Below, piece by piece: positions 17,563 through 64,000 of a stretch of 64,000 bases of DNA. The number at the start of each line of letters is the position of its first letter. The stretch's first letter is position 1. This stretch comes from a virus. Its lineage: Duplodnaviria; Heunggongvirae; Uroviricota; Caudoviricetes. Below the pieces are notes generated by a model. The model did not search any database. It had not been told where the DNA came from and saw only the letters and a program-made list of their open reading frames with translations. Location: IMG/VR virus record IMGVR_UViG_3300009500_000011, positions 104,585 through 168,584 of that record. One strand, 5' to 3'. A program made the translations under genes and the position numbers.

Positions 17563-17567
17563 ATTAT

Positions 17568-30408: not shown

Positions 30409-30420
30409 AATAATCACAAA

Positions 30421-30888: not shown

Positions 30889-31186
30889 TGATAAGTGCGA
30901 AACATGCGATGGTAAAGGTACATGGGAAGTACCCTGGGATGAAGTTGATGATGCAACCAAGGCTATGCTTGGTGGCATTGATGACTTGATAAGTAAATTT
31001 CCTGGTTCTAAATTGGGTCCATTAGTTTATAATTGTCCTGATTGTCAACAAACTGGTTCGCAAGCCGTTCGAGAACAATGGTCAATAAATCGTTTAGACC
31101 CTAAAAAACATGAGTATGTTTTTCAATGTACTGATGGTGACCCTTGTTGGGAATGTAAAGCAGAGAAAAAAGAGCATTTAAAATGA
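30878..31186 (+). CDS. small zinc-binding protein (DnaJ-type CxxCxG-like)
   Basis: CETCDGKG and CPDCQQTG motifs. Confidence 0.4.
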   Translation: MNIDDKCETCDGKGTWEVPWDEVDDATKAMLGGIDDLISKFPGSKLGPLVYNCPDCQQTGSQAVREQWSINRLDPKKHEYVFQCTDGDPCWECKAEKKEHLK

Positions 31187-32321: not shown

Positions 32322-32324
32322 TTG

Positions 32325-41542: not shown

Positions 41543-44500
41543 ATGTCGCTACTCTTGTTGTATAACCGTAAACTTTTTCAGTCTACATTAACTAATTCTA
41601 ATTTAACTTCTGATTCAAATTCAAGAAAAACTTATTTTTCAAGAACTAATGTAGATTCAAGTTTGTTTTCTGATTCTTCTGCTAGAAGTGCAAATTATAA
41701 TAGAGCATCATCAGATATATTCAACTTATCTGATAGTCTTTTGCGTAATACGTTTTATGCACGTAGTTTTCAAGAAATATATTCTTTTTTCGATTCATTA
41801 AATAGACAAGTTGATAACAGTAGAAGTGAATCAGAAATTTTTAGTACGATTGATATTCAAAATTTATCACGATTTTATAATCGTTCATCCACAGATTCTT
41901 TTAATTTTTCTGATAGTAATTCTCGGTTTTTAGATTTTGCTCGTCTTCAATCTGATGTTTTAATTTTTAATGACTTAATTAATCGTTCCACTAATGTAAA
42001 TCGTTCTATAACCGACCAATCTATAGAGATAGATTCTTTAACAAGACAAATTATTGATAATCGCCAAACTTCGGACGTATTCAATACTATTTTATCTTTT
42101 ACAGAACAGCAGTTTTTATCTAGGTCAACTACCGATGGATTAAGTTCTTTTACAGATTCTTCATCGTATAGTCGAGTTTTGCCACGTTCTGTTATGGATA
42201 CTTTTAGTTTTTCGGATTCAAATTCTATTTCTCAATTACTTCTAAGAACATTTAGTGAAAGTTATTCTTTCAATGATGTTCTTAGTAATTCTGGAACTCA
42301 TATCGCTTTTTTAAGTGATGTATTAACAAATTTTGTAGATTCAATAAGCGCCGAACAGTTTGTTTCAAGAACAATGTCTGATAATCTAACGACATTAGAT
42401 TTAGTAACTTCAGTTAAGACTTTTTATAGATTAAATTCAGATAATACTAACTTTGCAGATGCTATCTCTTCTGCTAATATTTTAAATAGATTTAATATTC
42501 AAAATTTAAATTTTAATGATTCACTTAATAATCAAAATATTTTTAATAGAAATAATAGTGATTTAGTTAATAATTTTAATGATTCCACTTTAATATCTCA
42601 ATTTTTAAATCGAACCTCAAATGAGGTGTTTTCAACATCTGATATTTTATCTTTGGCGCAATTTTTGTCTCGTAATCCAACAGATATTCTTACAACGTTA
42701 GATAATAACGGTAGAAATATCTTTATTTCTAAATCAGTAATTGATTCTATTTTAACTTTCGATAGTCTTCAAAGCACGAAGATTGCTAATTTAAATCTTC
42801 AAGAAACATTTAGCTTTAGTGATGTTCTTTTAAGAAATATTATAGATTTCCGTACAAATTCAGACAGTTTTGCGTTTGTTGATTTTGTCAATAATTATAA
42901 TATATTTACAAAATCAATTGTTGAATCTTTCCAAACAAATGATTTGCTAACAAGGGAGTATATCTCAAATCAAAATCTTCAAGAAAACTTTAATTTTTTA
43001 GATATATTATCTGAAAGTCAATTTTTACAAAGACAATGTTCAGAACAATTTAATTTTATTGATGGTATATTGAGAGAAGTAATCATTAATAGGGCCATGA
43101 ACGAAACTCTATTGGAATCAGATGACATTACTACTGCTTTAGTTTTCTTTAGGAATATAAATGAACAATTCTCTACCGCAGCATCTGTAAGTTATGTACA
43201 TTCATTCGTTAGAAATTTGTTAGAAAATTTTGCAACTTCTAATTCCATTAGCAGGGCTCTTATTTCTCCAAGAAATACTTCTGATTTCTTTAATCAAATT
43301 GTCGATACTTTAAATTCATATAAAATTGCCAATTTTAATCTTGATGAAACTTTTGCATTTAATGATTCTTTATCTCAAATGTCTCTGGTTTTTAGGAATT
43401 TTTCAGATTTATTTAGTTTTTTTGATTTTACAACAAGTAATGCAATAATTCCTAGAAATATTGAAGAATCATATCCTATAAGTGATTCATTGTCCAATAA
43501 CAATTTGTTTTCAAGACTTTTCGAAGAAGAATTTAATTTTACTGATGCTGTTAATATAAGTCAGAGTTTGGCGCGTCAATTCTTAGATAGTTTTATTTTT
43601 TTTGATAATGTTTCAACAAATAGTTCAGGCGGTTTGTTTTTAAGAGTAATATCAGATGTTTTAAATACTAATGATTCTAGTGAAATAAATCAATTTTTAA
43701 ATCGTGAAAATACCGATACATCATTAACTAGTGATTCGCTCCAAAACTCCAATATTTTAAATAGACAATTTCAAGACTTATTAAGTATAGCAGATACCTT
43801 AACTTCTACTAATGAATTTAATAGATTTTTTTCTGATTTGTTGCAAACTAATGATGCTGCAAATTCAAATTACGTTTATAATTCAAATTTATCTGATAAT
43901 TTAAACACAAGTGATTCGCTAAATAGATTTTTTCTAAATATTGCAAACTTAGCAGAAACATTTACAACAACAGATTCCAACTCCAGAGAATCTATTTTGG
44001 CGCGAAGTCTATCTGAAACATTTTCTCTATTGGATTTATTAACTAGAGTTTTATCTAAAGTAAGGTTATTAAACGATAATCTTCCCTTTACTTTTGATTC
44101 ACTTGCAACATATAGTACGTTTTTTAGAGAACTGCAAGAAGAGTATATATCATCCGAAGAATTAATTAACGAATCTATTTATAAAAGGCAACTTGAAAAT
44201 ACATTTACAACTTTGGATGAGTTGATGCGTGTTTTACTTATTGCTAGGGAAGTATTTGAAGTCGGAGAAATATCAGATACTGTTGCAAGTAAAGCAGTTA
44301 TTCTAAGATTTGTAGAAGAATTTTTTGAATTAGTAGATAATATTGCCTTAAATCAAAGAATTAATCGTAGTTCTGAGTATCAAAGTAACTTCTCGGATAT
44401 TCTAAATAGAGAAGTTATATTAGAAAGATTTTTGTCTGATTCAAGTCAATTTTTTGACAATTCTTTACTTCAAAAAGTTGGTGCAAGATTTTTCGTTAAT

Positions 44501-44878
44501 TTATTTGATGAATACTCATTTACTGATGAACTTATTGGGACAAGTTTGTTAGAAAGATTTTCTCAGGACATATTACAAACAGCCGATGAAGTTGCTCGTT
44601 TAGTAAATAATAATAGAAGTGTAGAAGAAATTTTTGAATTCTTAGATATTGCTTCGCGTAAACCAGTATTTAAAATTGGTCAAAGAGTTAAATTCAGATA
44701 TAATGGTGCCTTATGTCAAGGTAAAATTATTTTAAGATATTATGCAACAAATCCTAGTGAAGGCATTAGATATCAAGTTAATGTTGATTTTTGTAGTAAT
44801 TGGAAAGCAATTGGAAAAACAACACGAATTGATGTAGATTTAAATGATTTATTATCAATTAATCCTCAGAATTGGTAA
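41543..44878 (+). CDS. giant tandem-repeat protein (~50 x 20-aa units), putative fibrous virion protein
   Basis: Period-20 repeat R-x2-S-[DE]-x-F-x-F-x-D-S-x8 over about 1000 aa. Unique C-terminal domain ending PQNW. Confidence 0.6.
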   Translation: MSLLLLYNRKLFQSTLTNSNLTSDSNSRKTYFSRTNVDSSLFSDSSARSANYNRASSDIFNLSDSLLRNTFYARSFQEIYSFFDSLNRQVDNSRSESEIFSTIDIQNLSRFYNRSSTDSFNFSDSNSRFLDFARLQSDVLIFNDLINRSTNVNRSITDQSIEIDSLTRQIIDNRQTSDVFNTILSFTEQQFLSRSTTDGLSSFTDSSSYSRVLPRSVMDTFSFSDSNSISQLLLRTFSESYSFNDVLSNSGTHIAFLSDVLTNFVDSISAEQFVSRTMSDNLTTLDLVTSVKTFYRLNSDNTNFADAISSANILNRFNIQNLNFNDSLNNQNIFNRNNSDLVNNFNDSTLISQFLNRTSNEVFSTSDILSLAQFLSRNPTDILTTLDNNGRNIFISKSVIDSILTFDSLQSTKIANLNLQETFSFSDVLLRNIIDFRTNSDSFAFVDFVNNYNIFTKSIVESFQTNDLLTREYISNQNLQENFNFLDILSESQFLQRQCSEQFNFIDGILREVIINRAMNETLLESDDITTALVFFRNINEQFSTAASVSYVHSFVRNLLENFATSNSISRALISPRNTSDFFNQIVDTLNSYKIANFNLDETFAFNDSLSQMSLVFRNFSDLFSFFDFTTSNAIIPRNIEESYPISDSLSNNNLFSRLFEEEFNFTDAVNISQSLARQFLDSFIFFDNVSTNSSGGLFLRVISDVLNTNDSSEINQFLNRENTDTSLTSDSLQNSNILNRQFQDLLSIADTLTSTNEFNRFFSDLLQTNDAANSNYVYNSNLSDNLNTSDSLNRFFLNIANLAETFTTTDSNSRESILARSLSETFSLLDLLTRVLSKVRLLNDNLPFTFDSLATYSTFFRELQEEYISSEELINESIYKRQLENTFTTLDELMRVLLIAREVFEVGEISDTVASKAVILRFVEEFFELVDNIALNQRINRSSEYQSNFSDILNREVILERFLSDSSQFFDNSLLQKVGARFFVNLFDEYSFTDELIGTSLLERFSQDILQTADEVARLVNNNRSVEEIFEFLDIASRKPVFKIGQRVKFRYNGALCQGKIILRYYATNPSEGIRYQVNVDFCSNWKAIGKTTRIDVDLNDLLSINPQNW
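41600..44640 (+). repeat. ~50 tandem 60-nt (20-aa) degenerate coding repeats
   Basis: Consecutive 20-residue units such as RASSDIFNLSDSLLRNTFYA / RSFQEIYSFFDSLNRQVDNS / RSESEIFSTIDIQNLSRFYN / RSSTDSFNFSDSNSRFLDFA. Confidence 0.75.
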
Positions 44879-45362: not shown

Positions 45363-45456
45363 TTTAAATTGCGTTAATTACAGATACTTCTTGTATATTG
45401 GTTCGAGTCCATTAAGTGTAGTCGGTACACAACTGTAGTTGTTCCATTCGTTTAAA
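45363..45456 (+). ncRNA. Y-RNA-like element C with tRNA-like T arm
   Basis: ATTTAAA/TTTAAAT terminal helix, TTGCG...TTACAG pairing with CTGTAG, ATACTTCTT box, TGG-TTCGAGT-CCA T-arm mimic, GTGTA-gtcgg-TACAC hairpin. Confidence 0.5.
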
Positions 45457-45464
45457 TTTTATTT

Positions 45465-45498
45465 AATCCTTGGGAATATATTTCTCAAGGATTTTTTT
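45465..45498 (+). terminator. intrinsic terminator closing the Y-RNA-like array
   Basis: AATCCTTGGGA...TCTCAAGGATT followed by TTTTT. Confidence 0.6.
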
Positions 45499-45519
45499 GT
45501 TGTCATAAAGGAAAAAAGA

Positions 45520-47205
45520 ATGAAATACAATACTAAAACAGTAAATGCTGGTCCAGGAACAAAAATGATAAATCTTGCAGGCGGAGAAGCTTTTAAAGTT
45601 GATAATCGTACTGCATTATATTTAACTTCTGCAACTTCTTTAGGTGGCGGTCAAGGAAATAAATATTATGTTTCTGCAAATCAAGAATACAAAAATATTC
45701 TTGAACTAATTGAAAAGGTTTCCGCTCAAGACCCAGAATTTATTTTCCAATTGGCTGCATATTGTCGTCAAGATTTATACCTTCGTAGTATTCCAACGGT
45801 ATTATTTATCGAAGGTATTCGTGCAATGCATAAGCAAAAAAAGGCCAATGCACCATATCCAGTAGATGCATCTAAGTATGCAAATGCTATTTTTGGTCGT
45901 GCTGATGAAATTGTTGAAGCAGTTGCATATTGGCTTGGAGTTGAAGGCCATCACAAATTGCCTTCCCCTCTTCGTAAATCTTTGACCATTGCTTTAAATT
46001 CATTTGATGAATACCGCTTGCTTAAATATAATCAAGAAGATAAGCAAGTTACATTTAAAGATATTGTTCGTCTTGTGCATCCAGAACCAAAAACTGATGT
46101 GCAAAGTGCAATTTTCAAATACTTCATCAAGGATGAAATCAGTCCAGAATTAATGCCAAAGGCAACTGCCCGCAAGGCTTTGCTTTCACGTACTCAATTT
46201 GATGAAGAAGCACAACGCTTGATGAGAGATTCATCTGCTACTTGGGAAACTGTAATTGCTAAATTCGGTTCGACTAAAGAAATTTGGGAAGCAGTTATTC
46301 CAAATATGGGATACATGGCTTTATTACGTAATCTTAATAATTTTCTTAAAAAAGAAGTAGATTTAGATTTAGTAATTCCTCGCCTTGTGAATCCGCAAGA
46401 AATTCGTAAAAGCAAGCAATTGCCTTTCCGTTTTTACACAGCAATGAAACAACTTGGTGTAGAAGATAACAATAAGAATTCTACGATGACATATTATGGA
46501 TATTCCGATTCAGTAAAAACAGCATTTGAAAAATGGCGTAATGTAAATTCTAGCGATGGAATTTCTCGTTTACGTAATGCTCTTGGTGTTGCTATGAATA
46601 TTGCAGTAGAAAATGTTCCTCACCTTTCAGGTCGTACCGTTGTTGCGGCAGACCTTTCTGGTTCTATGAGTCAACCTCTTAATAACAAATCAAATGTAAC
46701 TTATCGTGAAATCGCTTGTATTATGGCTGGTATTGCTGGTTCAATAGCACCAGATAATGTAATTTGTGGATTTGGTTGTTCATTTGCTGTTGCTAAAAAA
46801 GGCAAAGATATTCTTGAAACTGCAAATAATATTGATAAATTAAATGTTGGAATGTCAACGGATGCATGGCGTATTCTTGATTACTTGCTTACAAACAAAA
46901 TTTTTGTAGATAGAGTCATGTATTTTACAGATACACAATGTTATAATTCATATGGGGGCGCAAATTTAAACGAACTTTGGAAAAAATACAAAGTTCTTTG
47001 CCAATCAACTGGTAAAAAAGTTCCTGTTCTTTATGAAGTAAATCTTGCAGGTGGTAATACATCTAGTTTTAATTCTGAACAAAGAGTTGCTACCATTGGT
47101 GGATGGTCTGAAAGAATTTTTGATTTAATTACTACTTATGAAACTGACCCTCGTCAAGCAATAAGTAAAATTAAAGAAAAATATTCAGATTTAGTATCTG
47201 TTTAA
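45520..47205 (+). CDS. rsr: Ro60-related protein (TROVE domain + vWA), Rsr-like
   Basis: Start trimmed to MKYNTKT behind AAAGGAAAAAAG. TROVE-like helical repeat region (FIFQLAAYCRQDLYLRSIP). C-terminal MIDAS AADLSGSMS. Confidence 0.85.
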   Translation: MKYNTKTVNAGPGTKMINLAGGEAFKVDNRTALYLTSATSLGGGQGNKYYVSANQEYKNILELIEKVSAQDPEFIFQLAAYCRQDLYLRSIPTVLFIEGIRAMHKQKKANAPYPVDASKYANAIFGRADEIVEAVAYWLGVEGHHKLPSPLRKSLTIALNSFDEYRLLKYNQEDKQVTFKDIVRLVHPEPKTDVQSAIFKYFIKDEISPELMPKATARKALLSRTQFDEEAQRLMRDSSATWETVIAKFGSTKEIWEAVIPNMGYMALLRNLNNFLKKEVDLDLVIPRLVNPQEIRKSKQLPFRFYTAMKQLGVEDNNKNSTMTYYGYSDSVKTAFEKWRNVNSSDGISRLRNALGVAMNIAVENVPHLSGRTVVAADLSGSMSQPLNNKSNVTYREIACIMAGIAGSIAPDNVICGFGCSFAVAKKGKDILETANNIDKLNVGMSTDAWRILDYLLTNKIFVDRVMYFTDTQCYNSYGGANLNELWKKYKVLCQSTGKKVPVLYEVNLAGGNTSSFNSEQRVATIGGWSERIFDLITTYETDPRQAISKIKEKYSDLVSV

Positions 47206-48495: not shown

Positions 48496-49146
48496 ATGGA
48501 AACTCAAAAAACCTTCTTTACTAGTGATAATCACTTCAATCATGAGAATATAATTAAATTTTGTTTTCGTGGTTATGGTTCTTATGAAGAAAGAAAAAAT
48601 AACCCAGAACTTCATTTCAAATCAATAGGTGAAATGAATGAAATTATGGTTCAACGTTGGAATGAAGTGGTTGGACCAACCGATACTGTATATGTACTCG
48701 GTGATTTTGCTATGGGTGATAAATATAAGTCTGTTGAATATTTTAATAGGCTAAATGGAACAAAACATCTAGTTCTTGGAAATCATGATTGTAGTAACTT
48801 TGTCAAAAAAGAAGTTCACCCTGCAATCCTTGAAATGGGTTTTGCTTCAATTACTGAAGAACTATACGCAAAAATAGATGGTCGAAATGTATGGATGGCT
48901 CACATTCCATATGGTCATAATAATGATAAACGTAACTATCTTCGTGAAAAAGTTAAGCCAGGTTTTTCTCTTAAAAAAGATGTTATTCTAAGTGGCCATG
49001 TACATGATAAATGGATTATAAATAATCATAATTCCATTAATGTGGGAACAGATGTTTGGGATTTTTACCCTCAAACCTTGTCTCAACTTCTGGAAAAAAC
49101 AAAAGACCTTCCTCGTTTTGATTCTTCAATATTTCTTCCTGTTTAA
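48496..49146 (+). CDS. metallophosphoesterase
   Basis: FTSDNHFNH, LGDF, GNHD, GHVHD motifs. Confidence 0.8.
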   Translation: METQKTFFTSDNHFNHENIIKFCFRGYGSYEERKNNPELHFKSIGEMNEIMVQRWNEVVGPTDTVYVLGDFAMGDKYKSVEYFNRLNGTKHLVLGNHDCSNFVKKEVHPAILEMGFASITEELYAKIDGRNVWMAHIPYGHNNDKRNYLREKVKPGFSLKKDVILSGHVHDKWIINNHNSINVGTDVWDFYPQTLSQLLEKTKDLPRFDSSIFLPV

Positions 49147-51670: not shown

Positions 51671-52426
51671 ATGCGCGCTCTTGGTTTAAAATCTTTAGTA
51701 GACCCACGTAGGGACCAATATCCAAAATTAATTTTAAAAGATGGTCCAATTCCTTCAAAAGTTGAATATGCTCCTTTATATCCTCCGGTTGATGACCAAG
51801 GAAATTTTGGTACATGTGTTGCATTTGGAACCGGCAAAGTCTTTGAATACTTTTATAATAAGCAGAACAACAAACAACTTTTAATTTCAAAACGTGCCCT
51901 TTTTTCAGAAATTAAACAAAATTTTTACCCTCATGATACTCAAGATGATGGTGCCCAAGTTTCTGATGGATTACAAATATTATCTTTAAATTACATCTTA
52001 GAATCTGATTTTCCTTATGAACCGGCTGGAGATTTTAGTCAGTTTTTACATGGGGTTCCAGCAAATCTTGAAAAAACAGATTTTAAAATAAAACATTTTG
52101 TATCGGTAAATCCCGTCATTGATGATATGAAAAATGCATTATTTCATCAAGGCCCTTTAGCTATCGGAACATCCTTTGCAAACGAATGGATGGAGATTGG
52201 TAGTGATGGTCGTTTACCTGGTTCTAATCTTACATCTGCTGGTGGACATTGCATGTCTATTACCGGATATGATGATGACTTTGTAAATCTAGATGGTTCA
52301 AAAGGTGCTTTCCATTATATTAACAATTGGTCAACTGCTTGGGGCCAAGAAGGATATGCTTGGTTGCCATATAACGTTGATACAGACTTTTTTCCAACCG
52401 ACCTTTTTACAGTTCAAGTTCAATAA
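51671..52426 (+). CDS. papain-like cysteine peptidase (C1 family)
   Basis: QGNFGTCVAFG (Gln/Cys), GGHCMSITGYDD (His), NNWSTAWGQEGYAW (Asn/Trp). Complete catalytic signature. Confidence 0.85.
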   Translation: MRALGLKSLVDPRRDQYPKLILKDGPIPSKVEYAPLYPPVDDQGNFGTCVAFGTGKVFEYFYNKQNNKQLLISKRALFSEIKQNFYPHDTQDDGAQVSDGLQILSLNYILESDFPYEPAGDFSQFLHGVPANLEKTDFKIKHFVSVNPVIDDMKNALFHQGPLAIGTSFANEWMEIGSDGRLPGSNLTSAGGHCMSITGYDDDFVNLDGSKGAFHYINNWSTAWGQEGYAWLPYNVDTDFFPTDLFTVQVQ

Positions 52427-53538: not shown

Positions 53539-53624
53539 TGGGTGAATTGGTCAAACCACCTTCCTGCTAAGAAGGCGCGACCCCTCAAAAGGTCTTCCGG
53601 GTTCGAGTCCCGGTCACTCTGCCA
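53532..53624 (+). tRNA. tRNA-Ser(GCT), type II
   Basis: Acceptor AGAGTGA/TCACTCT, arm CCTTC-CTGCTAA-GAAGG, long variable arm GACC...GGTC, T arm CCGGG-TTCGAGT-CCCGG, G73, CCA. Confidence 0.85.
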
Positions 53625-53646
53625 ATTTAAATCTAAGAAAATTATA

Positions 53647-53868
53647 ATGCGAAATATAAATGATTCTGTTGCAATTATAGCTTATTCTCAAGATGATTAT
53701 ATTATTGTTACATCTGGAAGAATAGTAGGTATAAAAATCCATGTTACTAAACCTGATTTATATAATGTTCTTAGTATAGATGGCAACATTTATAGTGTAT
53801 CAGATGATAAAATTTTTGATTCTTTTGAATCTGCTTTAGAAATAGCCAAATCAAAACCAAATTTATAA
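53647..53868 (+). CDS. hypothetical protein
   Basis: ORF 53542..53868 trimmed; its first 35 codons are the tRNA-Ser gene. Confidence 0.4.
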   Translation: MRNINDSVAIIAYSQDDYIIVTSGRIVGIKIHVTKPDLYNVLSIDGNIYSVSDDKIFDSFESALEIAKSKPNL

Positions 53869-54287
53869 TGTCTTATAAATTATTAAAAATTATACCTGGG
53901 GCTTCAAAAGGCATAAAATTATTTAGAACAAGTAAATTTAATCGTGATGGTATGCCTAAAATAAAGCCCAAATCTAGCAAATATAGGTCTTCTATGTTTG
54001 CTTCTTATTTTATAGAACATACCCGTTGTGCTTTTAAAGGTCATGTTCCTAAACCTTCGGGTCGCAAAAATCATTTGCCAACATGTAAATATTGTTATCA
54101 TATTTTGCCTGAATATGGATACGGTTATGGATGGACAAAAGAATTAGAAATTTCTATATATGGTGAAAAGGATTGTCGTCGGTATTGTGAGAATTGCACA
54201 TCAGGTTATTATTTAAAGCCAGATTCGATTAAATGTAATAACTATTTTTGCGGTAAAGAAAGAAAATATATTATTAATCATGCATAA
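53868..54287 (+). CDS. hypothetical Cys-rich basic protein
   Basis: Intact ORF in the tiling. Confidence 0.4.
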   Translation: MSYKLLKIIPGASKGIKLFRTSKFNRDGMPKIKPKSSKYRSSMFASYFIEHTRCAFKGHVPKPSGRKNHLPTCKYCYHILPEYGYGYGWTKELEISIYGEKDCRRYCENCTSGYYLKPDSIKCNNYFCGKERKYIINHA

Positions 54288-54567
54288 ATATGCTGTTTTC
54301 CATCAAAATTATAATGAAAAATATGATAAACGTTTGATTGCAGTAGTTGAAATTGCAGAAGGTGTTAATCCTCATGCTGCTCATATGTATGGGCAATCAT
54401 TTTTAAATGACCCTGAGCATTATTATACCATTGTCGAAAGATATGAAGAACCAAAGGTTGTATTGATAACAGAAAAAGTTCTTCAAGCAAGATTGTCTAT
54501 AATAGAAAAGCAACGTGAAATTGCTGAAAGACAAAAAGAAATTAATAAGTTATTAAAGGTTGGATAA
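54280..54567 (+). CDS. hypothetical protein
   Basis: Intact ORF in the tiling. Confidence 0.4.
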   Translation: MHKYAVFHQNYNEKYDKRLIAVVEIAEGVNPHAAHMYGQSFLNDPEHYYTIVERYEEPKVVLITEKVLQARLSIIEKQREIAERQKEINKLLKVG

Positions 54568-54881
54568 TGAAACCAGCAAATAAACCATGTTCAAAAGAGT
54601 ATTGTTTTAAAGAGGCAAAAGAATTTGAAGATGCTTTAATTGAAGATGGCATGGTTGTCACACGAACAAAACCTAAACTTTTTAAGTGTGGCAAATGTGG
54701 TATTCTTGTTTGTGCCTACCATTCGACGGCATTAGTTATGTTTAGGGATGAACATGGAAATCGAAAACAAATTGCGTATAAACCAGCAATTTGTCGTCGT
54801 TGTTCTTGGTTAGAAGATAATGCTGGTTTACATGGTAGACCCGCAGGTTGGATTGCAACGAGAGTCCCTATTCCTTGGTAA
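54567..54881 (+). CDS. hypothetical Cys-rich protein
   Basis: CGKCG...CRRC motifs. Confidence 0.4.
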   Translation: MKPANKPCSKEYCFKEAKEFEDALIEDGMVVTRTKPKLFKCGKCGILVCAYHSTALVMFRDEHGNRKQIAYKPAICRRCSWLEDNAGLHGRPAGWIATRVPIPW

Positions 54882-54924
54882 TAATCAAAATAATAATTGA
54901 CAACACTAGAAAAGAAAGTAAGAT

Positions 54925-55179
54925 ATGAACATGGATACTAAATCACAGAATTCGGAAGAAACAAAAATTGTAGGTCGTACTGCTTTAGTTACTGGCAAAA
55001 TTGGCCCAGACACACTTGGTCAAGTTACTGTTGCTATACGTGAAGGCACAGATACATATTCTGCGCGTTCGGCTCATCCTGACGAAGTAATATCTGTTGG
55101 TTCTGAAGTTGTAATTTCAAAGTTTTTTCCTCCACGGACTGTTTTAGTTTCAAAAACTACTACTTCTACGAAAGAATAA
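54925..55179 (+). CDS. NfeD-like OB-fold protein
   Basis: G.TALVTG.I....G.V.V......Y.A.S......G..V.I pattern of the NfeD C-terminal domain. Sits immediately upstream of an SPFH gene, as in bacterial nfeD-floT operons. Confidence 0.5.
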   Translation: MNMDTKSQNSEETKIVGRTALVTGKIGPDTLGQVTVAIREGTDTYSARSAHPDEVISVGSEVVISKFFPPRTVLVSKTTTSTKE

Positions 55180-55185
55180 TAAATC

Positions 55186-56619
55186 TTGACTAGTTTACTT
55201 ATGACATATGGAATTCCGGTAGGTATCGGATTATTAGCATTATTTTTCATCGTTGGACTTCTTCGTTCAATGTATAAAGTCGCAGAACCGAATGAAGCTT
55301 TAATTATTTCAGGTTTTGGGGCAGGCAAAAAAGGTTCTGACTTAGATTTCAAATCAGTTGCTGGCGGTGGCACATTTGTAATTCCTGGCCTTCAAATTGT
55401 GCGTAAACTTTCTTTAGAAGCCCGTACTGCTAAATTGGTTACAAGTTGTGTTTCTAAGCAGGGTATTGGTGTATCTATTGAAGGTGTTTGTATGTACAAA
55501 ATTGGTGATAGCGCACAATCTATTGCCAACGCTGCACGACGTTTTCTAGGTCAACCAGATGACTTAATTGATAGCAATATTCAAACAGTTCTTGACGGTC
55601 ATCTTCGTTCAATTATCAGTAATTTAACGATTGAAGAAATTCTTCAAAATCGTGAAAAACTTACTGGTGAGACAAGAAGTGCTGCTGATGATGAACTTGC
55701 ACAGATGGGTCTAGTTATTAACTCGCTTCAAATCATTAGTATCAAAGATTCTAGTAATTATGTTGCAAGCATGGCTGCTCCTCATGTTGCAGAAGTTCAA
55801 AAGAATGCTCGTATTGCACAGGCTGCTGCTGAACAAGCAGCAACAATTGCTGAACAAGAGGCTGCTGCTCAAAAGGCCGCTGCTACTAGAGATTCAGAAG
55901 TCAAACAGGCTGCATATTTAGCAGAGATTGAATCTGCGAAAGCAACAGCAGCACAACAAGGCCCTCTAGCGGCTGCTAAAGCGCAACAAGCCGTTATGGT
56001 TGAACAAACTAAAATGACGGAACTTGAAGCTAATCGTAAAGAACAAGAACTTCAAGTTAGTGTTCGTCGTCCTGCTGATGCAGAAGCCTATGCTGTTACA
56101 GTTAAGGCAAATGCTCAAAAGGTTGCTACGATTGCTGCTGCTGAAGCAAATGCACAACAAACTAAACTTGAAGCTGAATCTCGCGCTGCCGCAGCTAGGG
56201 TTCTTGGTGAAGGTGAAGCAGAGGCTACAAAGGCCCGTGGTGCTGGTGAAGCTGCTGCTATTGAAGCCAAAGGTCTTGCTGAAGGTAAAGCAATTCAAGC
56301 GCGTGTACTTGCCGAAGCCGAAGGTATTGCCGCTAGTGGTAAAGCATTCGCTGAAAATAAAGAATCTGTTATTCAAAAGATTCTTGCAGAACATATGCCT
56401 GAAATTGTTAAAGAAGCTGCACAACCATTTGCTGCAATTAAAAACTTCATGGTTCTTGATGGTGCCCAAGGTGTAAATCGTACACTTACCGGAATCATCG
56501 GTGTGGGTGCAACCTTGCTTCCACAAATCATGCAGACTTTTAAAGATGGTGCAGAGGTTGTTAAGAATCAAGTATCACTCACGAATTCTGGAACAGACTC
56601 TGAAAAACCCAAGAAGTAA
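55186..56619 (+). CDS. flotillin-like SPFH (band 7) protein
   Basis: N-terminal TM helix, YKVAEPNEALIISG start of the SPFH domain, long Ala/Glu/Gln-rich flotillin coiled coil. TTG start (alternative ATG at 55201). Confidence 0.85.
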   Translation: MTSLLMTYGIPVGIGLLALFFIVGLLRSMYKVAEPNEALIISGFGAGKKGSDLDFKSVAGGGTFVIPGLQIVRKLSLEARTAKLVTSCVSKQGIGVSIEGVCMYKIGDSAQSIANAARRFLGQPDDLIDSNIQTVLDGHLRSIISNLTIEEILQNREKLTGETRSAADDELAQMGLVINSLQIISIKDSSNYVASMAAPHVAEVQKNARIAQAAAEQAATIAEQEAAAQKAAATRDSEVKQAAYLAEIESAKATAAQQGPLAAAKAQQAVMVEQTKMTELEANRKEQELQVSVRRPADAEAYAVTVKANAQKVATIAAAEANAQQTKLEAESRAAAARVLGEGEAEATKARGAGEAAAIEAKGLAEGKAIQARVLAEAEGIAASGKAFAENKESVIQKILAEHMPEIVKEAAQPFAAIKNFMVLDGAQGVNRTLTGIIGVGATLLPQIMQTFKDGAEVVKNQVSLTNSGTDSEKPKK

Positions 56620-56690
56620 GTAATTTACTACAATCACATAGCAGGTAGATTAATCTCTACCTGCTATGTTTATTTAAAAGGTTCATATAT

Positions 56691-56993
56691 ATGTTAAGCG
56701 AAGAATTTAAAGAAAAAAGATTTAAAGAAAACACATCATTAGATAAAGACCGCATTCTATATTCAGGTGCTTTATATGATGATGTTAGAGCGGCAATATA
56801 TGCTGTAGTTCGTCAATGGCGCGCTTCACATAATAATTTTGGTAAAAATTCTACAATGAAACATGTAGATGAAATTATGACTATGCCTGAAGTAATTCGA
56901 TTATATGACCCATTTTATACAACAAAAAGTTGGTTTAATTATACAGGTTGCACCTGTCGCGGTGATTGCTGCGAAAATCATGAAGAGGAATAA
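56691..56993 (+). CDS. hypothetical protein
   Basis: Intact ORF in the tiling. Confidence 0.4.
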   Translation: MLSEEFKEKRFKENTSLDKDRILYSGALYDDVRAAIYAVVRQWRASHNNFGKNSTMKHVDEIMTMPEVIRLYDPFYTTKSWFNYTGCTCRGDCCENHEEE

Positions 56994-57000
56994 TAAAAAA

Positions 57001-57228
57001 ATGCCGTTTTACAAATTTCGTTGCTCAAATTTTGAATGTAGTTATAACCAAAAAGATTTAAAACCATTAGTATTTGAATTAAATATGTCAATGACAAATT
57101 ATTCTCAATTATCTAAAGATAGTATCACCGGGAATCCAATGGTAAAATGTCCAGAATGTTCTTATGATGCTATTAGAGTATTTGAAGCCCCAGCAGTTCA
57201 TACAGAAACGGGAGTTAAATCAAGATAA
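57001..57228 (+). CDS. FmdB-family zinc-ribbon protein
   Basis: Trimmed to MPFYKFRC..FEC...CPEC, the canonical FmdB N-terminus (MP.YEYRC..C). Confidence 0.55.
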   Translation: MPFYKFRCSNFECSYNQKDLKPLVFELNMSMTNYSQLSKDSITGNPMVKCPECSYDAIRVFEAPAVHTETGVKSR

Positions 57229-57443
57229 TGAATCAAAAAGTTTACCAACCTAGAAAAGAAGATAGAAGAAAATCTTCAAGACGCGAAGCTGATGATAAAG
57301 TTATGGTAACCTTTGAACTTGATAGAGAAGTTTATTTCGAAGTTTTAAAAATTTGTATTGAGACAAAACAAACCTTTGAAGAATTTGTTGTCAAAGCGGT
57401 AAAAGAACAATTAGAAAGAATTAAAAATTCGGATGTTGGGTAG
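57228..57443 (+). CDS. possible ribbon-helix-helix (CopG-like) protein
   Basis: Basic N-terminus, then beta-strand VMVTFELD and two short helices. By-eye call only. Confidence 0.35.
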   Translation: MNQKVYQPRKEDRRKSSRREADDKVMVTFELDREVYFEVLKICIETKQTFEEFVVKAVKEQLERIKNSDVG

Positions 57444-57681
57444 ACAACAATCTTTGTACAATTCTTGTAAAATTAATTTTAATACTTTAAAACAAAATGT
57501 TAAAATTTTGTTGGGTGATAATAAAAAAGTTTTAGATGCCTTACAAGTTGTTGAATTAGAACTAATTAAAGTCAATCCTTATTGTAAAATAACTTCAATT
57601 AAAAATGTTACAGAAGAAGAAAACAATTCTCCTGTTCTAGAAAAAGAGAATACTACTGATGAAAGCAAAACAAGCAATTAA
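57433..57681 (+). CDS. hypothetical protein
   Basis: Intact ORF overlapping both neighbours by a few codons. Confidence 0.35.
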   Translation: MLGRQQSLYNSCKINFNTLKQNVKILLGDNKKVLDALQVVELELIKVNPYCKITSIKNVTEEENNSPVLEKENTTDESKTSN

Positions 57682-57853
57682 AATGCTAAAAAACATAGGA
57701 TTTGATATAGAGCGTATGGGAAAAGGTGACCATATATTATTGCGGAGTCCTGATAATAAAAGAATTGTTCTGCAAAATGGTGCATTAGAATTATCTCCAG
57801 GTTTGACAGGTAAAGTTAGAAGTCTTTTGCAAAAAGGTAAGTTAAATGAGTGA
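57659..57853 (+). CDS. HicA-like mRNA interferase toxin
   Basis: 64 aa. K..IK.L...GF.....GKGDH......D......L.....L..G pattern of the YcfA/HicA family. Confidence 0.55.
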   Translation: MKAKQAIKMLKNIGFDIERMGKGDHILLRSPDNKRIVLQNGALELSPGLTGKVRSLLQKGKLNE

Positions 57854-58106
57854 CCATTATACTTATTCCTATGATTCTCCTCCTTTTTGTTATAAATGTA
57901 AAACATTACATAATAATAATCTAATTTGTGATGTTCTTAAAGAAGAATATCTTAAAAAAAGTTTAGAACCCGAAAGATTTATAAAAGTCCACGAAGAAAA
58001 ACGCTGGATTGATTCGACTAATTTCCGAATAATAGAATATTTCAATCTTTTGCCTAAAAAAATTTATGGAAATTGGGCTAAACCAATATTGTTGACAAAA
58101 CAATAA
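57846..58106 (+). CDS. hypothetical protein
   Basis: ATGAGTGA overlap with the HicA-like gene. Contains the promoter for tRNA-Val in its 3' end. Confidence 0.4.
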   Translation: MSDHYTYSYDSPPFCYKCKTLHNNNLICDVLKEEYLKKSLEPERFIKVHEEKRWIDSTNFRIIEYFNLLPKKIYGNWAKPILLTKQ

Positions 58107-58130: not shown

Positions 58131-58213
58131 CGGCGGGTTCCCGTAGCGGCGAACGGTCTGCTTTTACATGGCAGCATACCACATCGTGGGTTCGAGTCCC
58201 ACCCTGCCGACCA
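58131..58213 (+). tRNA. tRNA-Val(TAC) with 11-nt variable loop
   Basis: Acceptor CGGCGGG/CCTGCCG, arm CTGCT-TTTACAT-GGCAG, variable CATACCACATC, T arm GTGGG-TTCGAGT-CCCAC, CCA. Promoter at 58092-58120. Confidence 0.7.
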
Positions 58214-58230
58214 CTTTAGCAGAGAAACAA

Positions 58231-58560
58231 ATGGCAAAAGTAACAAAAAAATTAGAGCATTGCCCTGATTGTTATGTTAAGATAAATGAACGCCATCATA
58301 AAGGCTGTGACATTGAAAGATGTACGGTTTGTGGCGGTCAAAGACTTGTTTGCGGTTGTAAAGGTCATAAGCCTTGGAGTGCTGTTTGGACCGGATTTTG
58401 GCCCGGTGTAATTGAATGTCAAGTTTTAGGATGGTATTCAAAATTTATTCCGAATTATGGTTGGCGTCAAACTACCCAAGATGACCCAGATGGAATGGAA
58501 GATTTAAACCGATGGGTTATCTATAACATGGAAGTTCATCAGTTGACAAATCTTTCCTAA
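58231..58560 (+). CDS. hypothetical Cys/His-rich protein
   Basis: ORF 58168..58560 trimmed to ATG (MAKVTKK); the first 21 codons are tRNA-Val. CPDC...CTVCGG...CGC. Confidence 0.4.
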   Translation: MAKVTKKLEHCPDCYVKINERHHKGCDIERCTVCGGQRLVCGCKGHKPWSAVWTGFWPGVIECQVLGWYSKFIPNYGWRQTTQDDPDGMEDLNRWVIYNMEVHQLTNLS

Positions 58561-60519: not shown

Positions 60520-60593
60520 AGCGGAGTGGTGAAATGGTATCATGCGTGGTTTGGGACCATGTGGCGAGGGTTCGATTCCCTCCTCTGCTACCA
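60520..60593 (+). tRNA. tRNA-Pro(TGG), second copy
   Basis: Acceptor AGCGGAG/CTCTGCT, arm CGTGG-TTTGGGA-CCATG (G37), T arm GAGGG-TTCGATT-CCCTC, CCA. Confidence 0.8.
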
Positions 60594-60597
60594 ATTT

Positions 60598-60672
60598 CCC
60601 CGGTTAGTTCAGCGGGAGAACGCCACATTGACATTGTGGAGGTGGTAGGTTCGACACCTACACCGGGGACCA
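60598..60672 (+). tRNA. tRNA-Val(GAC)
   Basis: Acceptor CCCCGGT/ACCGGGG, arm CCACA-TTGACAT-TGTGG, T arm GTAGG-TTCGACA-CCTAC, CCA. Confidence 0.85.
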
Positions 60673-60792
60673 ACAAACTTAAAGAAGTTGCGCTCAATCC
60701 GACGCTACAAGGTCGCTCCTTGTATCTTGTATAGAGAATATCGGAGTGCGAGACGTTTTCGGTTCACTACGAGTAAGAAGGGAACCGTTTAA

Positions 60793-60867
60793 GGGGAACT
60801 AGTGCTAATGGTAACACGACTCGCTTGCACCGAGTAATTCAGAGTTCGATTCTCTGGTTCTCCACCA
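60793..60867 (+). tRNA. tRNA-Ala(TGC)
   Basis: Acceptor GGGGAAC/GTTCTCC with G3-U70. Arm ACTCG-CTTGCAC-CGAGT, T arm CAGAG-TTCGATT-CTCTG, A73, CCA. Confidence 0.9.
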
Positions 60868-60891
60868 AATTTATTCAAGGTAAATAGTAGT

Positions 60892-61110
60892 ATGTCATTT
60901 AGAAAATTTGTATTTGAAAGAAGTGAAGATGTAAGCGGAGTATCAGGAATCGGTATTGTTGCTGAAGGCGTAGAATTTTCAAATGGTAAAACAGTAATTG
61001 CTTGGTGCGTTCCTGGAAAACCAAATTCAGCAGTTATATACGATAATATACACGAAGCAATAGAAGTACATGGTCACGAAGGCCGAACAGTAATAAAATG
61101 GATAGATTAA
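60892..61110 (+). CDS. hypothetical protein
   Basis: Intact ORF after tRNA-Ala. Confidence 0.4.
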   Translation: MSFRKFVFERSEDVSGVSGIGIVAEGVEFSNGKTVIAWCVPGKPNSAVIYDNIHEAIEVHGHEGRTVIKWID

Positions 61111-61111
61111 G

Positions 61112-61513
61112 ATGGATGAATTTGAAGAAATTATTGATGTTTTAGTCCGAAAAATTGAACTATCTGATGATAGATATGTTTTGGTTATAAATGGTAAATA
61201 TCAATTAGTAGTTGATGCAGATTGTTGCTCTGAAACATGGATTGAACATATTATTGGTGTAAAACAATTATTAGGTTCAAAAATAAGAAGTGTAAAAAGA
61301 TTAGAATTTCCATCTGAATATATTGAATGCTTGACGAAAGCAGAACCATCTGCCGACTATACACAATATTATGGATTAGCTATAACTTCTAGAAATGGGC
61401 AAATGATTATTGATTTTCGTAATCGGAGCAATGGTTATTATGGTGGAAGTATTCAGTTGCTTATTAGCGAAAAAATTCCTTCAAATTTAAGATTGATAAC
61501 CGAGGATGAATAA
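61112..61513 (+). CDS. hypothetical protein
   Basis: Intact ORF in the tiling. Confidence 0.4.
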   Translation: MDEFEEIIDVLVRKIELSDDRYVLVINGKYQLVVDADCCSETWIEHIIGVKQLLGSKIRSVKRLEFPSEYIECLTKAEPSADYTQYYGLAITSRNGQMIIDFRNRSNGYYGGSIQLLISEKIPSNLRLITEDE

Positions 61514-61515
61514 TA

Positions 61516-61716
61516 ATGTTCTGCGGTAAAAAACCAACTCAAGATGAAATAATGAAAATCAAAGAGTTTGCTGCTTTCTTAAGAAATATAAATTCTATCG
61601 AAAAAGATGAGAACTTGACAAAAGAAGAAAAAAAAGATAAACTAAACGAAATTATAGCGCAAGCAAATAATAAAATACAAAAAGAATGGGAAAATGGCAG
61701 AAAAAAACGACGATAA
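61516..61716 (+). CDS. hypothetical lysine-rich protein
   Basis: Intact ORF in the tiling. Confidence 0.4.
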   Translation: MFCGKKPTQDEIMKIKEFAAFLRNINSIEKDENLTKEEKKDKLNEIIAQANNKIQKEWENGRKKRR

Positions 61717-61924
61717 GTTTGAACTAAAAGGTTTTGTACTTAAATCACATCCCGGAGCAACTTTTTCAGTTCGATTAGAAGGAATAGAAAAAGATGTTCT
61801 TTGTCATCTTTCTGGGAAAATGCGAATGAATAATATTCGTGTTCTAGAAGGTGATACTGTGGATGTTGAAATGGATGTATATGATTTATCTAGGGGTAAA
61901 ATCATATTTAGGTATAAGAAATAG
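61694..61924 (+). CDS. infA: translation initiation factor IF-1 homologue
   Basis: 76 aa, colinear with bacterial IF-1: G.V........F.V.LE.......H.SGKMR.N.IR.L.GD.V.VE...YDLS.G.I.FR. Confidence 0.9.
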   Translation: MAEKNDDKFELKGFVLKSHPGATFSVRLEGIEKDVLCHLSGKMRMNNIRVLEGDTVDVEMDVYDLSRGKIIFRYKK

Positions 61925-62089
61925 ATGGTCGATAGACTATTACATTTTCTTCAAAATAAATATGTTCCCGCACTATGGGCAGTTTTATTAACAGTATGGT
62001 TAATTGGTGCTATAATTGATACAACTCCCAAAGTATATAATGTAATAAATTTAATAAATAAACAAATAAAGGTCAATCATCATGTTTGA
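61925..62089 (+). CDS. candidate 54-aa membrane peptide
   Basis: TM-like ALWAVLLTVWLIGAII. ATGTTTGA overlap with the next gene. Confidence 0.3.
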   Translation: MVDRLLHFLQNKYVPALWAVLLTVWLIGAIIDTTPKVYNVINLINKQIKVNHHV

Positions 62090-62360
62090 AATTGAATTTG
62101 TTGGTGGATATCATGATGGAAGAATTGAAAAGGTTGCTAAAACAAATCCTACAAAAACATTAACAATTAGCCAAAAAATGTCTACGAATGATTTAACTGG
62201 AGAAATTAAATCTCTTGTAAGCAGCTACAAATTAGATAGGAAAACTGAAGGTGTAAATGGTTTTCCACGCATTATTTATATAATTGATGCAGAAATTATA
62301 GAAACATCATTGATGCAAGATTTAATTAAAAATACAAGACACCTTCCAGAAGGATTATAA
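62082..62360 (+). CDS. hypothetical protein
   Basis: Intact ORF in the tiling. Confidence 0.4.
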   Translation: MFEIEFVGGYHDGRIEKVAKTNPTKTLTISQKMSTNDLTGEIKSLVSSYKLDRKTEGVNGFPRIIYIIDAEIIETSLMQDLIKNTRHLPEGL

Positions 62361-62361
62361 A

Positions 62362-62562
62362 ATGGCAGAAAAAGTTCAAAGTGATTCAACTATGTTTTTT
62401 AATTCGCGAGAAGATTCTGAAAAATTAATTAAAGAAGTTAAACATATTTCGACTACTAAGGTTCAAATTCCATTGCATGATGAATTACAAAAATTGATAT
62501 CCCATTCTGTTGGGATACCTCCTGAAGTAATGAATATTGACAAAACTAAAGAAAAAGAGTAG
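62362..62562 (+). CDS. hypothetical protein
   Basis: Intact ORF in the tiling. Confidence 0.4.
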   Translation: MAEKVQSDSTMFFNSREDSEKLIKEVKHISTTKVQIPLHDELQKLISHSVGIPPEVMNIDKTKEKE

Positions 62563-62577
62563 TATATAAATAAATAT

Positions 62578-62652
62578 GGGGTTATCATATAGTGGCTATT
62601 ATGACGGTTTTGCAAATCGTTCACCTCAGTTCGACTCTGAGTAGCTCCACCA
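62578..62652 (+). tRNA. tRNA-Ala(TGC), second copy
   Basis: Acceptor GGGGTTA/TAGCTCC with G3-U70. Arm ACGGT-TTTGCAA-ATCGT, T arm CTCAG-TTCGACT-CTGAG, A73, CCA. Confidence 0.85.
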
Positions 62653-62662
62653 AACAAAAATT

Positions 62663-62863
62663 ATGGAACATAATGATATAGACCAAAAAACAGTTCATGC
62701 TCTTGTATATAAATTTGCAAATGATTTAAATGCATTATTTGGCTGTGAAACAACTTTTAAAATTTCTAAAATGCCCCATGCAAAATATGGAATGGCTATG
62801 GAAATAAAGGTTCATCCACATTATCCAGTTAATGAAATAAACATTGATTTAACAATAAATTAA
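62663..62863 (+). CDS. hypothetical protein
   Basis: Intact ORF between two tRNAs. Confidence 0.4.
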   Translation: MEHNDIDQKTVHALVYKFANDLNALFGCETTFKISKMPHAKYGMAMEIKVHPHYPVNEINIDLTIN

Positions 62864-62868
62864 AATAT

Positions 62869-62944
62869 GGCTCTATCGTATAGCGGTTTATTATAGGGGT
62901 TTCATAAGCCTTTGACGAAAGTTCGACTCTTTCTAGAGCCTCCA
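62869..62944 (+). tRNA. tRNA with CAT anticodon (Met or Ile2)
   Basis: Acceptor GGCTCTA/TAGAGCC, arm GGGGT-TTCATAA-GCCTT (G-U rich), T arm GAAAG-TTCGACT-CTTTC, CCA. Confidence 0.75.
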
Positions 62945-63225: not shown

Positions 63226-63738
63226 ATGAAAATTACTGATAAATACGTTTTGTTTTTTGGGCCAGAAGATTGTCCTTCCCAATGGTATCCTGTAAAGTTC
63301 AAAACTAGATTATTCGATTTTGAAAATTTAGAATTTAATTGTAGTGAACAATTCATGATGGCTGCAAAAGCATTATTCTTTGATGACAAAGAATCATTTG
63401 TTAAAATCATGAATACGTCTAGCCCCAATCAACAAAAATCTTTAGGTCGAAATGTTCAAGGTTTTGATAAAGATAAATGGAATGCTGTTTGCCGACCTTT
63501 AGTGACAGTTGGCAATATGGCTAAATTTACTCAAAATGATGATTTAAAGCAGTTTATGTTAGACAATGAGGGGAAAATTTTTGTTGAGGCTTCTCCTTAT
63601 GACGATATTTGGGGTGTTAAACTTGGGGCCAACGACCCTAGAATTTTAGACCCTTCTAAATGGAGAGGGACTAATTGGCTTGGAGAAATTTTGACTAGAA
63701 TTAATATTATAATTTGCAAAAAGGAGAAGTCAAAATGA
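63226..63738 (+). CDS. NADAR (YbiA-like) domain protein
   Basis: SEQFMMAAKA, SP...K.LGR, W......V...N.AKF.QN..L...L......VEASP.D.IWG, G.N.LGE.L motifs of the YbiA/NADAR family. Confidence 0.8.
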   Translation: MKITDKYVLFFGPEDCPSQWYPVKFKTRLFDFENLEFNCSEQFMMAAKALFFDDKESFVKIMNTSSPNQQKSLGRNVQGFDKDKWNAVCRPLVTVGNMAKFTQNDDLKQFMLDNEGKIFVEASPYDDIWGVKLGANDPRILDPSKWRGTNWLGEILTRINIIICKKEKSK

Positions 63739-64000
63739 GTATTTGGGAACCTTTCACGGAAAGAGCTAGACGTTCAATTGTTTTAGCCCAAGAAGAATCT
63801 CAACGTCTTGGTAGGGATTATATTGGAACCGAACATATTTTGCTTGGTATAATTTCTGAAAATGCATCTTTTGCAGCAGAAACATTAATCAATGAAGGTT
63901 TAAATCTTCAATCTGTGAGAGGAGAAGTTGAAGCAATTGTAGGTAGAGGTCAAAGAGCAAACAACAATGAAATGGTGTTTACTCCTCGTTCTAAAAAAGT
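63735..64000 (+). CDS. ClpC/ClpB-type chaperone, N-terminal Clp_N domain (partial, runs off the window)
   Basis: ATGA overlap with the NADAR gene. FTERARRSIVLAQEESQRLGRDYIGTEHILLGII...VRGEVEAIVGRGQ...FTPRSKK is colinear with the ClpC N-terminus. Not in the ORF track because it is open-ended. Confidence 0.85.
   Translation, partial: MSIWEPFTERARRSIVLAQEESQRLGRDYIGTEHILLGIISENASFAAETLINEGLNLQSVRGEVEAIVGRGQRANNNEMVFTPRSKK

Follow-up and report, generated by a model that had tools for sequence, protein, structure and literature searches.

A flotillin gene and a predicted anchorless NfeD-type partner gene in a very large phage-like genome

The gene pair and its products

A stretch of 64,000 nucleotides from the virus record IMGVR_UViG_3300009500_000011 of IMG/VR (positions 104,585 to 168,584 of that record), hereafter referred to as the window, carries two adjacent genes encoding a small NfeD-like protein and a flotillin-type SPFH protein. 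The open reading frame (ORF) of the small protein, here termed mini-NfeD, is located at positions 54925 to 55179 (+ strand) and encodes 84 amino acids (aa), or 82 aa if translation starts at the alternative ATG at 54931 adopted in the Joint Genome Institute (JGI)/public gene call (P0121). The flotillin ORF follows on the same strand (55186 to 56619) and comprises 477 aa when read from a TTG codon; gene callers place its start at the ATG at 55201 (472 aa, P0001), which probably represents the actual start. Depending on the starts chosen, the two genes are separated by 6–21 nt. A sequence-only reading of this region had proposed an nfeD-like/flotillin pair arranged in canonical order and carried by a phage, and this proposal was borne out by hidden Markov model (HMM) searches, profile comparison, fold prediction and gene order.

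The 477-aa protein matched Pfam Band_7 (PF01145) at residues 32–216 with an E-value of 7.8e-29 (101 bits vs. a cutoff of 23.6) and marginally passed the threshold for Pfam Flot (PF15975; 28.9 bits vs. a cutoff of 27, 1.3e-6). Applying phmmer, residues 27–444 were aligned to residues 4–408 of the human flotillin-1 chain from the cryo-electron microscopy (cryo-EM) cage (2e-37, approximately 28% identity), and the cryo-EM chain of human flotillin-2 was aligned end to end (2.5e-31). QmcA (9e-7) and stomatins were aligned weakly, a match to phrog_200 was obtained at 3.8e-13, and the NCBIfam hflC model scored only 13.7 bits. Moreover, the window protein keeps every one of the 76 columns that are invariant in an alignment of 28 sequences. 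The NCBIfam FloT equivalog NF058507 scored 238 bits and hence below its cutoff of 700. The product of 55186–56619 is a full-length flotillin, but not a FloT orthologue.

The architecture predicted for this protein corresponds to the one previously read from the letters alone, namely an SPFH protein featuring an N-terminal helix and a long helix rich in Ala and Glu. A hydrophobic segment spans residues 8–26 (mean Kyte-Doolittle value of 2.3). In the AlphaFold2 (AF2) model, which reached a predicted local distance difference test (pLDDT) value of 77.5, a helix at residues 4–24 (pLDDT 86–93) is followed by an alpha/beta SPFH domain at residues 25–183 and a continuous helix of approximately 225 residues (187–411); the protein contains 18.2% Ala and 8.4% Glu. 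Foldseek ranked the flotillin complexes 9l3g and 9bq2 first, followed by prohibitin, HflK/C, stomatin and QmcA-YbbJ (8z5g), and the FtsH-enclosing SPFH cages 7wi3 and 9cz2 were also among the fold matches.

For the 84-aa protein alone, no match was found in Pfam, PHROGs, NCBIfam and PADLOC (in Pfam not even at E-values up to 10), and a word-based search returned only the protein itself. A family profile built from seven homologous sequences retrieved 941 proteins, mostly 69–89 aa in length, many of which are labelled COG1585 by JGI. Compared with PDB sequences, the four top matches of this profile were C-terminal OB domains of NfeD proteins, namely 2k5h (1.7e-4), YuaF 2k14 (3.1e-4), 3cp0 and 3wwv. 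Furthermore, four of the seven homologues matched Pfam NfeD (PF01957; best E-value 3.4e-4). The AF2 model of mini-NfeD, based on 46 sequences, showed a pLDDT of 82 with a core above 90, and Foldseek placed 2k5h, 2k14, 3cp0 and 3wwv at the top (E-values of 2e-4 to 7e-4, template modelling (TM) scores up to 0.86). Root-mean-square deviations amounted to 1.4–2.0 Å for 3cp0, 3wwv and 2k14 and to 3.5 Å for 2k5h; the next match was a generic OB fold (E-value 0.047). No transmembrane helix was predicted, the maximum Kyte-Doolittle value of a 19-residue window being 0.89. At the level of profile and fold, the assignment of the 84-aa product as a predicted soluble, stand-alone NfeD-type OB domain holds.

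Thus, the earlier description of the short ORF as an OB-fold NfeD-like gene was confirmed by profile and fold, while the membrane anchor of NfeD proteins is lacking. Regarding the HMM check proposed at that time, Band_7 and, marginally, Flot passed, whereas the NfeD HMM failed on the 84-aa protein. Likewise, the statement that the locus reproduces the nfeD-floT operon stands for gene order and for both folds, but not for FloT orthology in view of the equivalog score.

Members of the mini-NfeD family typically comprise 65–90 aa. When 1.84 billion representatives were searched exhaustively with HMMER, only 435 clusters were obtained, nearly all of them short; the family is therefore compact and stays separate from canonical NfeD. 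Longer family members of 101–154 aa were considered as canonical NfeD proteins bearing transmembrane helices, but this was rejected, their Arg/Pro-rich N-termini being over-extended starts in high-GC DNA. Furthermore, a flotillin gene was located directly downstream and on the same strand in all of the 71 metagenome loci of the mini-NfeD family that provided enough downstream sequence, and a small homologous ORF precedes the flotillin gene in every locus examined, including those designated L001, L008, L011, L012, L013 and L015 (described below). Mini-NfeD therefore is an obligate partner of this flotillin subfamily, and the gene pair is co-inherited strictly.

The anchorless NfeD subfamily is missed by standard HMMs, and annotation pipelines therefore under-count NfeD-flotillin pairs in bacteria as well as in phages. 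In L011, the public gene caller overlooked the mini-NfeD gene (3006–3281) and instead annotated an ORF on the opposite strand at this position; small NfeD partners are likely to be under-annotated elsewhere too. In addition, the mini-NfeD profile matched 40 separate stretches of protein P0265 (7147 aa) and 10 of P0308 (3966 aa), a pattern suggestive of NfeD-like OB domains arranged in tandem within unrelated, huge proteins.

The fold matches also bear on a possible modulation of proteases, in which the phage cage would sequester or regulate a host membrane protease and thereby protect phage proteins or rewire host proteostasis. HflK/C acting with FtsH and the B. subtilis flotillins acting with FtsH serve as models for such a function. 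In agreement with this idea, FtsH-enclosing SPFH cages were retrieved by Foldseek, and the COG1585 label of many mini-NfeD homologues reads 'membrane protein implicated in regulation of membrane protease activity'. However, the SPFH protein is of the flotillin type and not of the HflK/C type, as is evident from the low hflC score, and mini-NfeD possesses neither a ClpP-like protease domain nor a membrane segment. Moreover, in the loci examined no protease gene was linked to the pair, the only exception being a ClpP in L015, which is unrelated and several genes distant. Protease modulation is accordingly rated as quite unlikely.

Upstream of the pair, a sigma-70-like promoter match (54897 to 54924, + strand; TTGACA, 16-nt spacer, TAAGAT) directly precedes the mini-NfeD ORF, its -10 element abutting the ATG. 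It was the top scorer of a 3.5-kb scan with 10 of 12 positions matching; promoter-like sites were rarer in the scanned region than in shuffled sequences, and this match to the consensus can only hint at a promoter. Downstream, an intrinsic-terminator-like hairpin (56636 to 56679, + strand) consisting of a 14-bp stem, a 6-nt loop and a subsequent T-rich tract was detected in a terminator scan, starting 17 nt after the flotillin stop codon. Its predicted RNA fold of -22.7 kcal/mol (z = -7.0) was equalled by none of 200 shuffled sequences, and, judged by these features, the strong terminator-like hairpin is the boundary of the two-gene unit. Two shadow ORFs overlap the Ala-rich flotillin gene (55966-56571 on the - strand and 56024-56476 on the + strand). 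Approximately 1 kb downstream of the flotillin operon, a 64-aa ORF (57659-57853) shows a weak match to the Pfam HicA toxin.

Phage-borne relatives, selection and replicon

Searching for related loci with a single sequence returned no viral and two genomic loci, and an alignment-based query was used instead. The sister phage-like contig L001, whose flotillin shares 67% identity with the window protein, harbours the pair next to a NADAR gene and directly upstream of NAMPT, NMNAT and NUDIX genes (1444-10565), representing a nicotinamide adenine dinucleotide (NAD) salvage neighbourhood of counter-defence type. Three further phage-like contigs encode, besides the pair, an exonuclease and a Sak4-like annealing protein (L011), a phage RNA ligase (L012), and phrog_2045 along with a deoxynucleoside monophosphate (dNMP) kinase (L013). 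The 97-kb contig L015, seen on 19 contigs, carries genes for Prim-Pol, PolA, a clamp, ClpP and a ligase, and in the 129-kb IMG/VR contig L008, as in the five others, the pair is embedded among phage replication or recombination genes. By comparison of these loci, the pair was encountered in no fewer than seven phage-like genomes that are unrelated to one another. The phage-like relatives vary in GC content from 39% to 60%, and the GC content at third codon positions (GC3) of the pair tracks that of its own contig in L011, L012 and L013, the three loci measured. Apart from the pair, only NUDIX was common to the window and its phage-like relatives, namely to the window and L001. The NUDIX fragment concerned is located at the very end of the window (63705-63998) and is 55% identical to its L001 homologue; therefore, NAMPT and NMNAT genes may lie just past the window.

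In a neighbour-joining tree, calculated from Kimura distances with 200 bootstraps and not by maximum likelihood, the window flotillin and that of L001 were grouped at 100% bootstrap support. Both belong to a clade (81% bootstrap) that additionally comprises L011, L012, L013 and a Vulcanimicrobiaceae protein (P0004) from a metagenome-assembled genome (MAG) of the Eremiobacterota. A second phage clade consists of L008 and L015, and the IMG/VR flotillins L009 and L010 branch deeply. The top named cellular homologues originate from Eremiobacterota (Vulcanimicrobiaceae, 58% identity), followed by Acidobacteriota, Chloroflexota and Actinomycetota. Among the deposited and mostly cultured phages, 8 of 50,697 records matched the window flotillin, mostly as short unannotated fragments, with full-length identities of at most 35%. 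According to the tree and the homologues found, the closest relatives of the window pair are mostly phage-borne, and no one-off capture from a host is indicated. Within a clade that is largely phage-borne, the pair appears to have been passed on as one unit; ultimately, this clade is related to soil-bacterial operons (Eremiobacterota, Acidobacteriota, Actinomycetota). The host capture suggested previously is thus retained in the sense of an ultimate derivation from cellular operons, but not as a single event, since the nearest relatives reside on other phage-like contigs.

That suggestion had been based on a locally higher GC content, and the rise itself is real (0.41 for the pair vs. 0.326 for the window). 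However, it is confined to the first two codon positions: the flotillin gene shows a GC1 of 0.62, a GC2 of 0.43 and a GC3 of 0.20, as compared with 0.44 ± 0.05, 0.33 ± 0.07 and 0.17 ± 0.04, respectively, for the other ORFs of at least 150 aa. GC3 of mini-NfeD is 0.18. The Ala codons of the flotillin gene follow the A/T-ending pattern of the phage, and the GC bump reflects protein composition because the flotillin consists of 18% Ala (18.2% vs. 5.6% in the other ORFs of this size). High GC as a mark of recent transfer was consequently rejected; the phage-like GC3 and Ala codon usage rather indicate a long residence in the phage. Between the window and L001 orthologues, nonsynonymous divergence (dN) was 0.30 for the flotillin and 0.42 for mini-NfeD, with saturated synonymous divergence (dS) of 1.9–2.4. 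Both genes are under purifying selection.

These results also speak to the question of whether the pair represents a recently captured host operon that is merely carried along and plays no role during infection. The total GC above that of the surroundings and the close cellular homologues would fit such a neutral passenger. Nevertheless, it is hardly credible considering that GC3 and codon choice are fully phage-like, that dN is far below dS with all invariant residues kept, and that the pair is conserved in the sister phage as well as in several other phages.

The neighbourhood observed in L001 directs attention to counter-defence. Here, the flotillin/mini-NfeD cage would shield the membrane from disrupting abortive-infection effectors, i.e., the pore-forming or transmembrane ones of CBASS, retrons, gasdermins and Rex-like systems, so that the phage could complete its replication. 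Besides the L001 genes and the NUDIX homologue kept a few kb downstream in the window, the recurrence of the pair in unrelated phages as a self-contained unit and the literature tying flotillin/SPFH proteins to membrane-stress repair argue for this function. Yet the link is guilt by association from one locus, the neighbours within the window are tRNA genes and small ORFs of unknown function instead of recognised anti-defence genes, and an SPFH protein acting as anti-defence factor is without known precedent. Taken together, a counter-defence role is considered unlikely, if conceivable.

The window has a GC content of 32.6%, is coded almost wholly on the + strand and contains 32 tRNA genes within 64 kb, all on the + strand (e.g., 16876-19021 and 60520-62944). 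It encodes a class I ribonucleotide reductase (RNR), a DnaG-type primase, a T4-type RNA ligase, a Thg1-like tRNA-His guanylyltransferase and PhoH, as well as a dNMP kinase, Ro60/TROVE and AAA ATPases; most of these match PHROGs strongly. Within the 64-kb window no structural genes were found, and blastn of positions 54000-58000 against the 50,697 phage records gave no match. Proteins identical to those of the window occur on a contig of 168,584 bp. Since structural genes are missing from the window, its phage identity leans on gene content, by which the window is, with good support, interpreted as the accessory/replication part of a very large phage genome.

Several further features of the replicon were noted. 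A tRNA/RNA repair and maturation gene set (11631-14197, 29683-32001 and 48496-49146) comprises the T4-type RNA ligase, the Thg1-like tRNA-His guanylyltransferase (phrog_4717, 1.9e-84), a nucleotidyltransferase and two phosphoesterases. The Ro60/TROVE orthologue with a vWA domain (45439-47205) matched PHROG 850 at 2e-46 and Pfam TROVE at 4e-32; an Rfam scan of the window at gathering threshold revealed tRNAs only and no Y-RNA-like partner. Within the dense tRNA cluster, ARAGORN reported at 18948-19021 a tRNA that has a four-base anticodon (atcg) and no assigned identity, for which the Rfam match was weak (35.2 bits); it could be of the frameshift-suppressor type or degenerate. Mechanically called ORFs overlapping or close to tRNA genes are probably spurious (53542-53868 over tRNA-Ser and 58168-58560 near tRNA-Val). 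A papain-like Peptidase_C1 protein (51671-52426) and a BCS1-like AAA ATPase (32322-33611; BCS1_N, 1.4e-29) represent unusual phage cargo. Moreover, two very large ORFs at 37311-40886 (1191 aa) and 41543-44878 (1111 aa) are without Pfam or PHROG match, and tblastn of the former against the 50,697 phage records likewise returned no match.

The delimitation of the pair by a promoter-like site and a strong terminator, together with the membrane-anchored product predicted, is reminiscent of a moron. As such, a membrane-embedded flotillin could change the envelope and block DNA injection by competitors (superinfection exclusion). This is, however, very unlikely: the carriers resemble large lytic-type phages with replication genes and not prophages, and neither protein matched a family of the PADLOC-DB defence-system models at E-values up to 0.1. 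In addition, the known exclusion proteins are not related to SPFH.

Proposed role during infection

Based on the features described above, it is proposed with moderate confidence that the two genes form a functional accessory operon in a huge phage, providing a flotillin cage and an NfeD stabiliser that would preserve the integrity of the host membrane and its proteins. The N-terminal helix of the flotillin would be anchored in the host cytoplasmic membrane, and its long helical region would oligomerise into a closed dome covering a membrane patch on the cytoplasmic face, by homology with flotillin-1/2, HflK/C, QmcA, stomatin and prohibitin. The soluble OB domain of mini-NfeD would bind and stabilise the flotillin oligomer, as modelled on FloA-NfeD. 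In this way, membrane and membrane-protein integrity, and hence energisation, would be kept through a long infection cycle, and premature collapse or leakage would be delayed until programmed lysis. The analysis itself shows the identities and architecture of the proteins, the operon linkage, the recurrence in phages, the codon amelioration and the purifying selection, and cage formation, NfeD-flotillin binding and the benefit for infection are what we infer. A structural or assembly role is not supported by anything in this analysis.

Published work on bacterial systems provides the background for this proposal. In S. aureus, the FloA-NfeD complex is reported to hold unfolded membrane proteins and keep them stable in an ATP-independent manner and to be required under stress; the flotillin oligomer is itself stabilised by NfeD (PMC11222466). 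Furthermore, SPFH/flotillin and NfeD proteins associate with the PspA membrane-stress system (PMC9239133), and in the bacterial relatives L014 and L016, a PspA/IM30 gene is located directly downstream of the flotillin gene.

Several observations weigh against the proposed membrane-maintenance role. PspA followed the flotillin gene in only 3 of 42 bacterial loci, a lower bound obtained with one PspA query at E ≤ 1e-5, and the assumption that the flotillin family is generally Psp-coupled was downgraded on this account. In the window and the phage loci, PspA was absent as determined by tblastn with the L014 protein. The AF2 model drops below a pLDDT of 50 at residues 415–469, i.e., at the flotillin C-terminus presumed to be the NfeD binding site. 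Mini-NfeD lacks the membrane anchor seen in all characterised NfeD proteins, and the transfer of the FloA-NfeD mechanism is for this reason an extrapolation. Moreover, the phage identity on which the proposal builds is itself drawn from gene content. Finally, papers noting phage SPFH genes call their role unclear (PMC13239085, PMC13384950), and the literature found on phage flotillin/NfeD consists of passing SPFH annotations, without functional work.

A more far-reaching version of the membrane-maintenance proposal would be that several unrelated phage lineages have domesticated a minimal flotillin cage and an anchorless NfeD clamp as a new class of infection-maintenance or counter-defence device shielding the host membrane, until lysis, against stress or against abortive-infection effectors that disrupt membranes. 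This version is speculative and regarded as improbable; if true, flotillins would be assigned a function that is clear, selectable and open to experiment within a system of two genes.

The function of bacterial flotillins is debated, the roles discussed being raft scaffold, membrane fluidiser, holdase for unfolded proteins and Psp adaptor. In this context, a stripped-down pair that is under purifying selection and common to phages differing widely in GC and gene content implies an advantage for infection that is both specific and portable, and the pair offers a minimal two-protein system in which flotillin function can be tested. If the benefit consisted in membrane protection against abortive infection, a new category of phage counter-defence would result; if the pair were a host-like housekeeping helper, it would add one more auxiliary gene to those of huge phages.

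Comparison with known systems

The phage locus resembles the bacterial nfeD-flotillin operons (yuaF-floT of B. subtilis, yqiJ-yqiK of E. coli and floA-nfeD of S. aureus), with which it shares the placement of an NfeD-type gene directly before the flotillin gene, a flotillin featuring an N-terminal anchor, SPFH domain, Ala/Glu-rich helix and Flot domain, and the OB fold of NfeD. It differs from them in being phage-encoded, in a flotillin scoring below the FloT equivalog cutoff and in an NfeD reduced to the OB domain of approximately 70–84 aa, which lacks transmembrane helices and fails the Pfam NfeD model. Related bacterial loci (L014 and L016), in which PspA/IM30 lies immediately downstream, resemble the PspA-linked Band_7/FloT/NfeD operons described for Acidobacteriota (PMC9239133), whereas PspA is absent from the window and the phage contigs.

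Regarding structure, the eukaryotic flotillin-1/2 cage (9bq2, 9l3g) shows full-length homology to the phage flotillin and represents its best fold match, and an equivalent dome on the cytoplasmic leaflet would be expected. The eukaryotic cage is a two-paralogue hetero-oligomer that is anchored by acylation and a hairpin and has no NfeD partner (PMC11222466). The phage system, in contrast, relies on a single flotillin gene with a predicted N-terminal helix anchor and on an NfeD partner. Physical SPFH-NfeD partnerships encoded by adjacent genes are represented by QmcA-YbbJ of E. coli (8z5g) and by the stomatin PH1511 and PH1510 of P. horikoshii (3wwv), and gene adjacency is likewise found in the phage. 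The C-terminal OB domain of PH1510 is among the top fold matches of mini-NfeD (TM score 0.86). However, the SPFH proteins of these systems are short and of the stomatin type, and their NfeD proteins are membrane proteins, PH1510 additionally featuring a protease domain.

Reports of SPFH/Band_7 genes in phages date back to 2006 (PMC1524935; PMC13239085; PMC13384950) and concern the T4-like phages 44RR, Aeh1 and RB43, GIB1 of the Schitoviridae, Xanthomonas phage X1 and members of PHROG 200. Like the pair described here, these SPFH genes are accessory genes of large lytic phages, but they are of a short 'lipoprotein' type for which an NfeD partner or Flot domain was not reported. Neither a phage flotillin-NfeD pair nor the NfeD subfamily lacking an anchor was found to be described in the literature. 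Accessory genes of host origin are frequent in huge phages; the notable feature of the present case is a minimal pair that recurs across unrelated phages.

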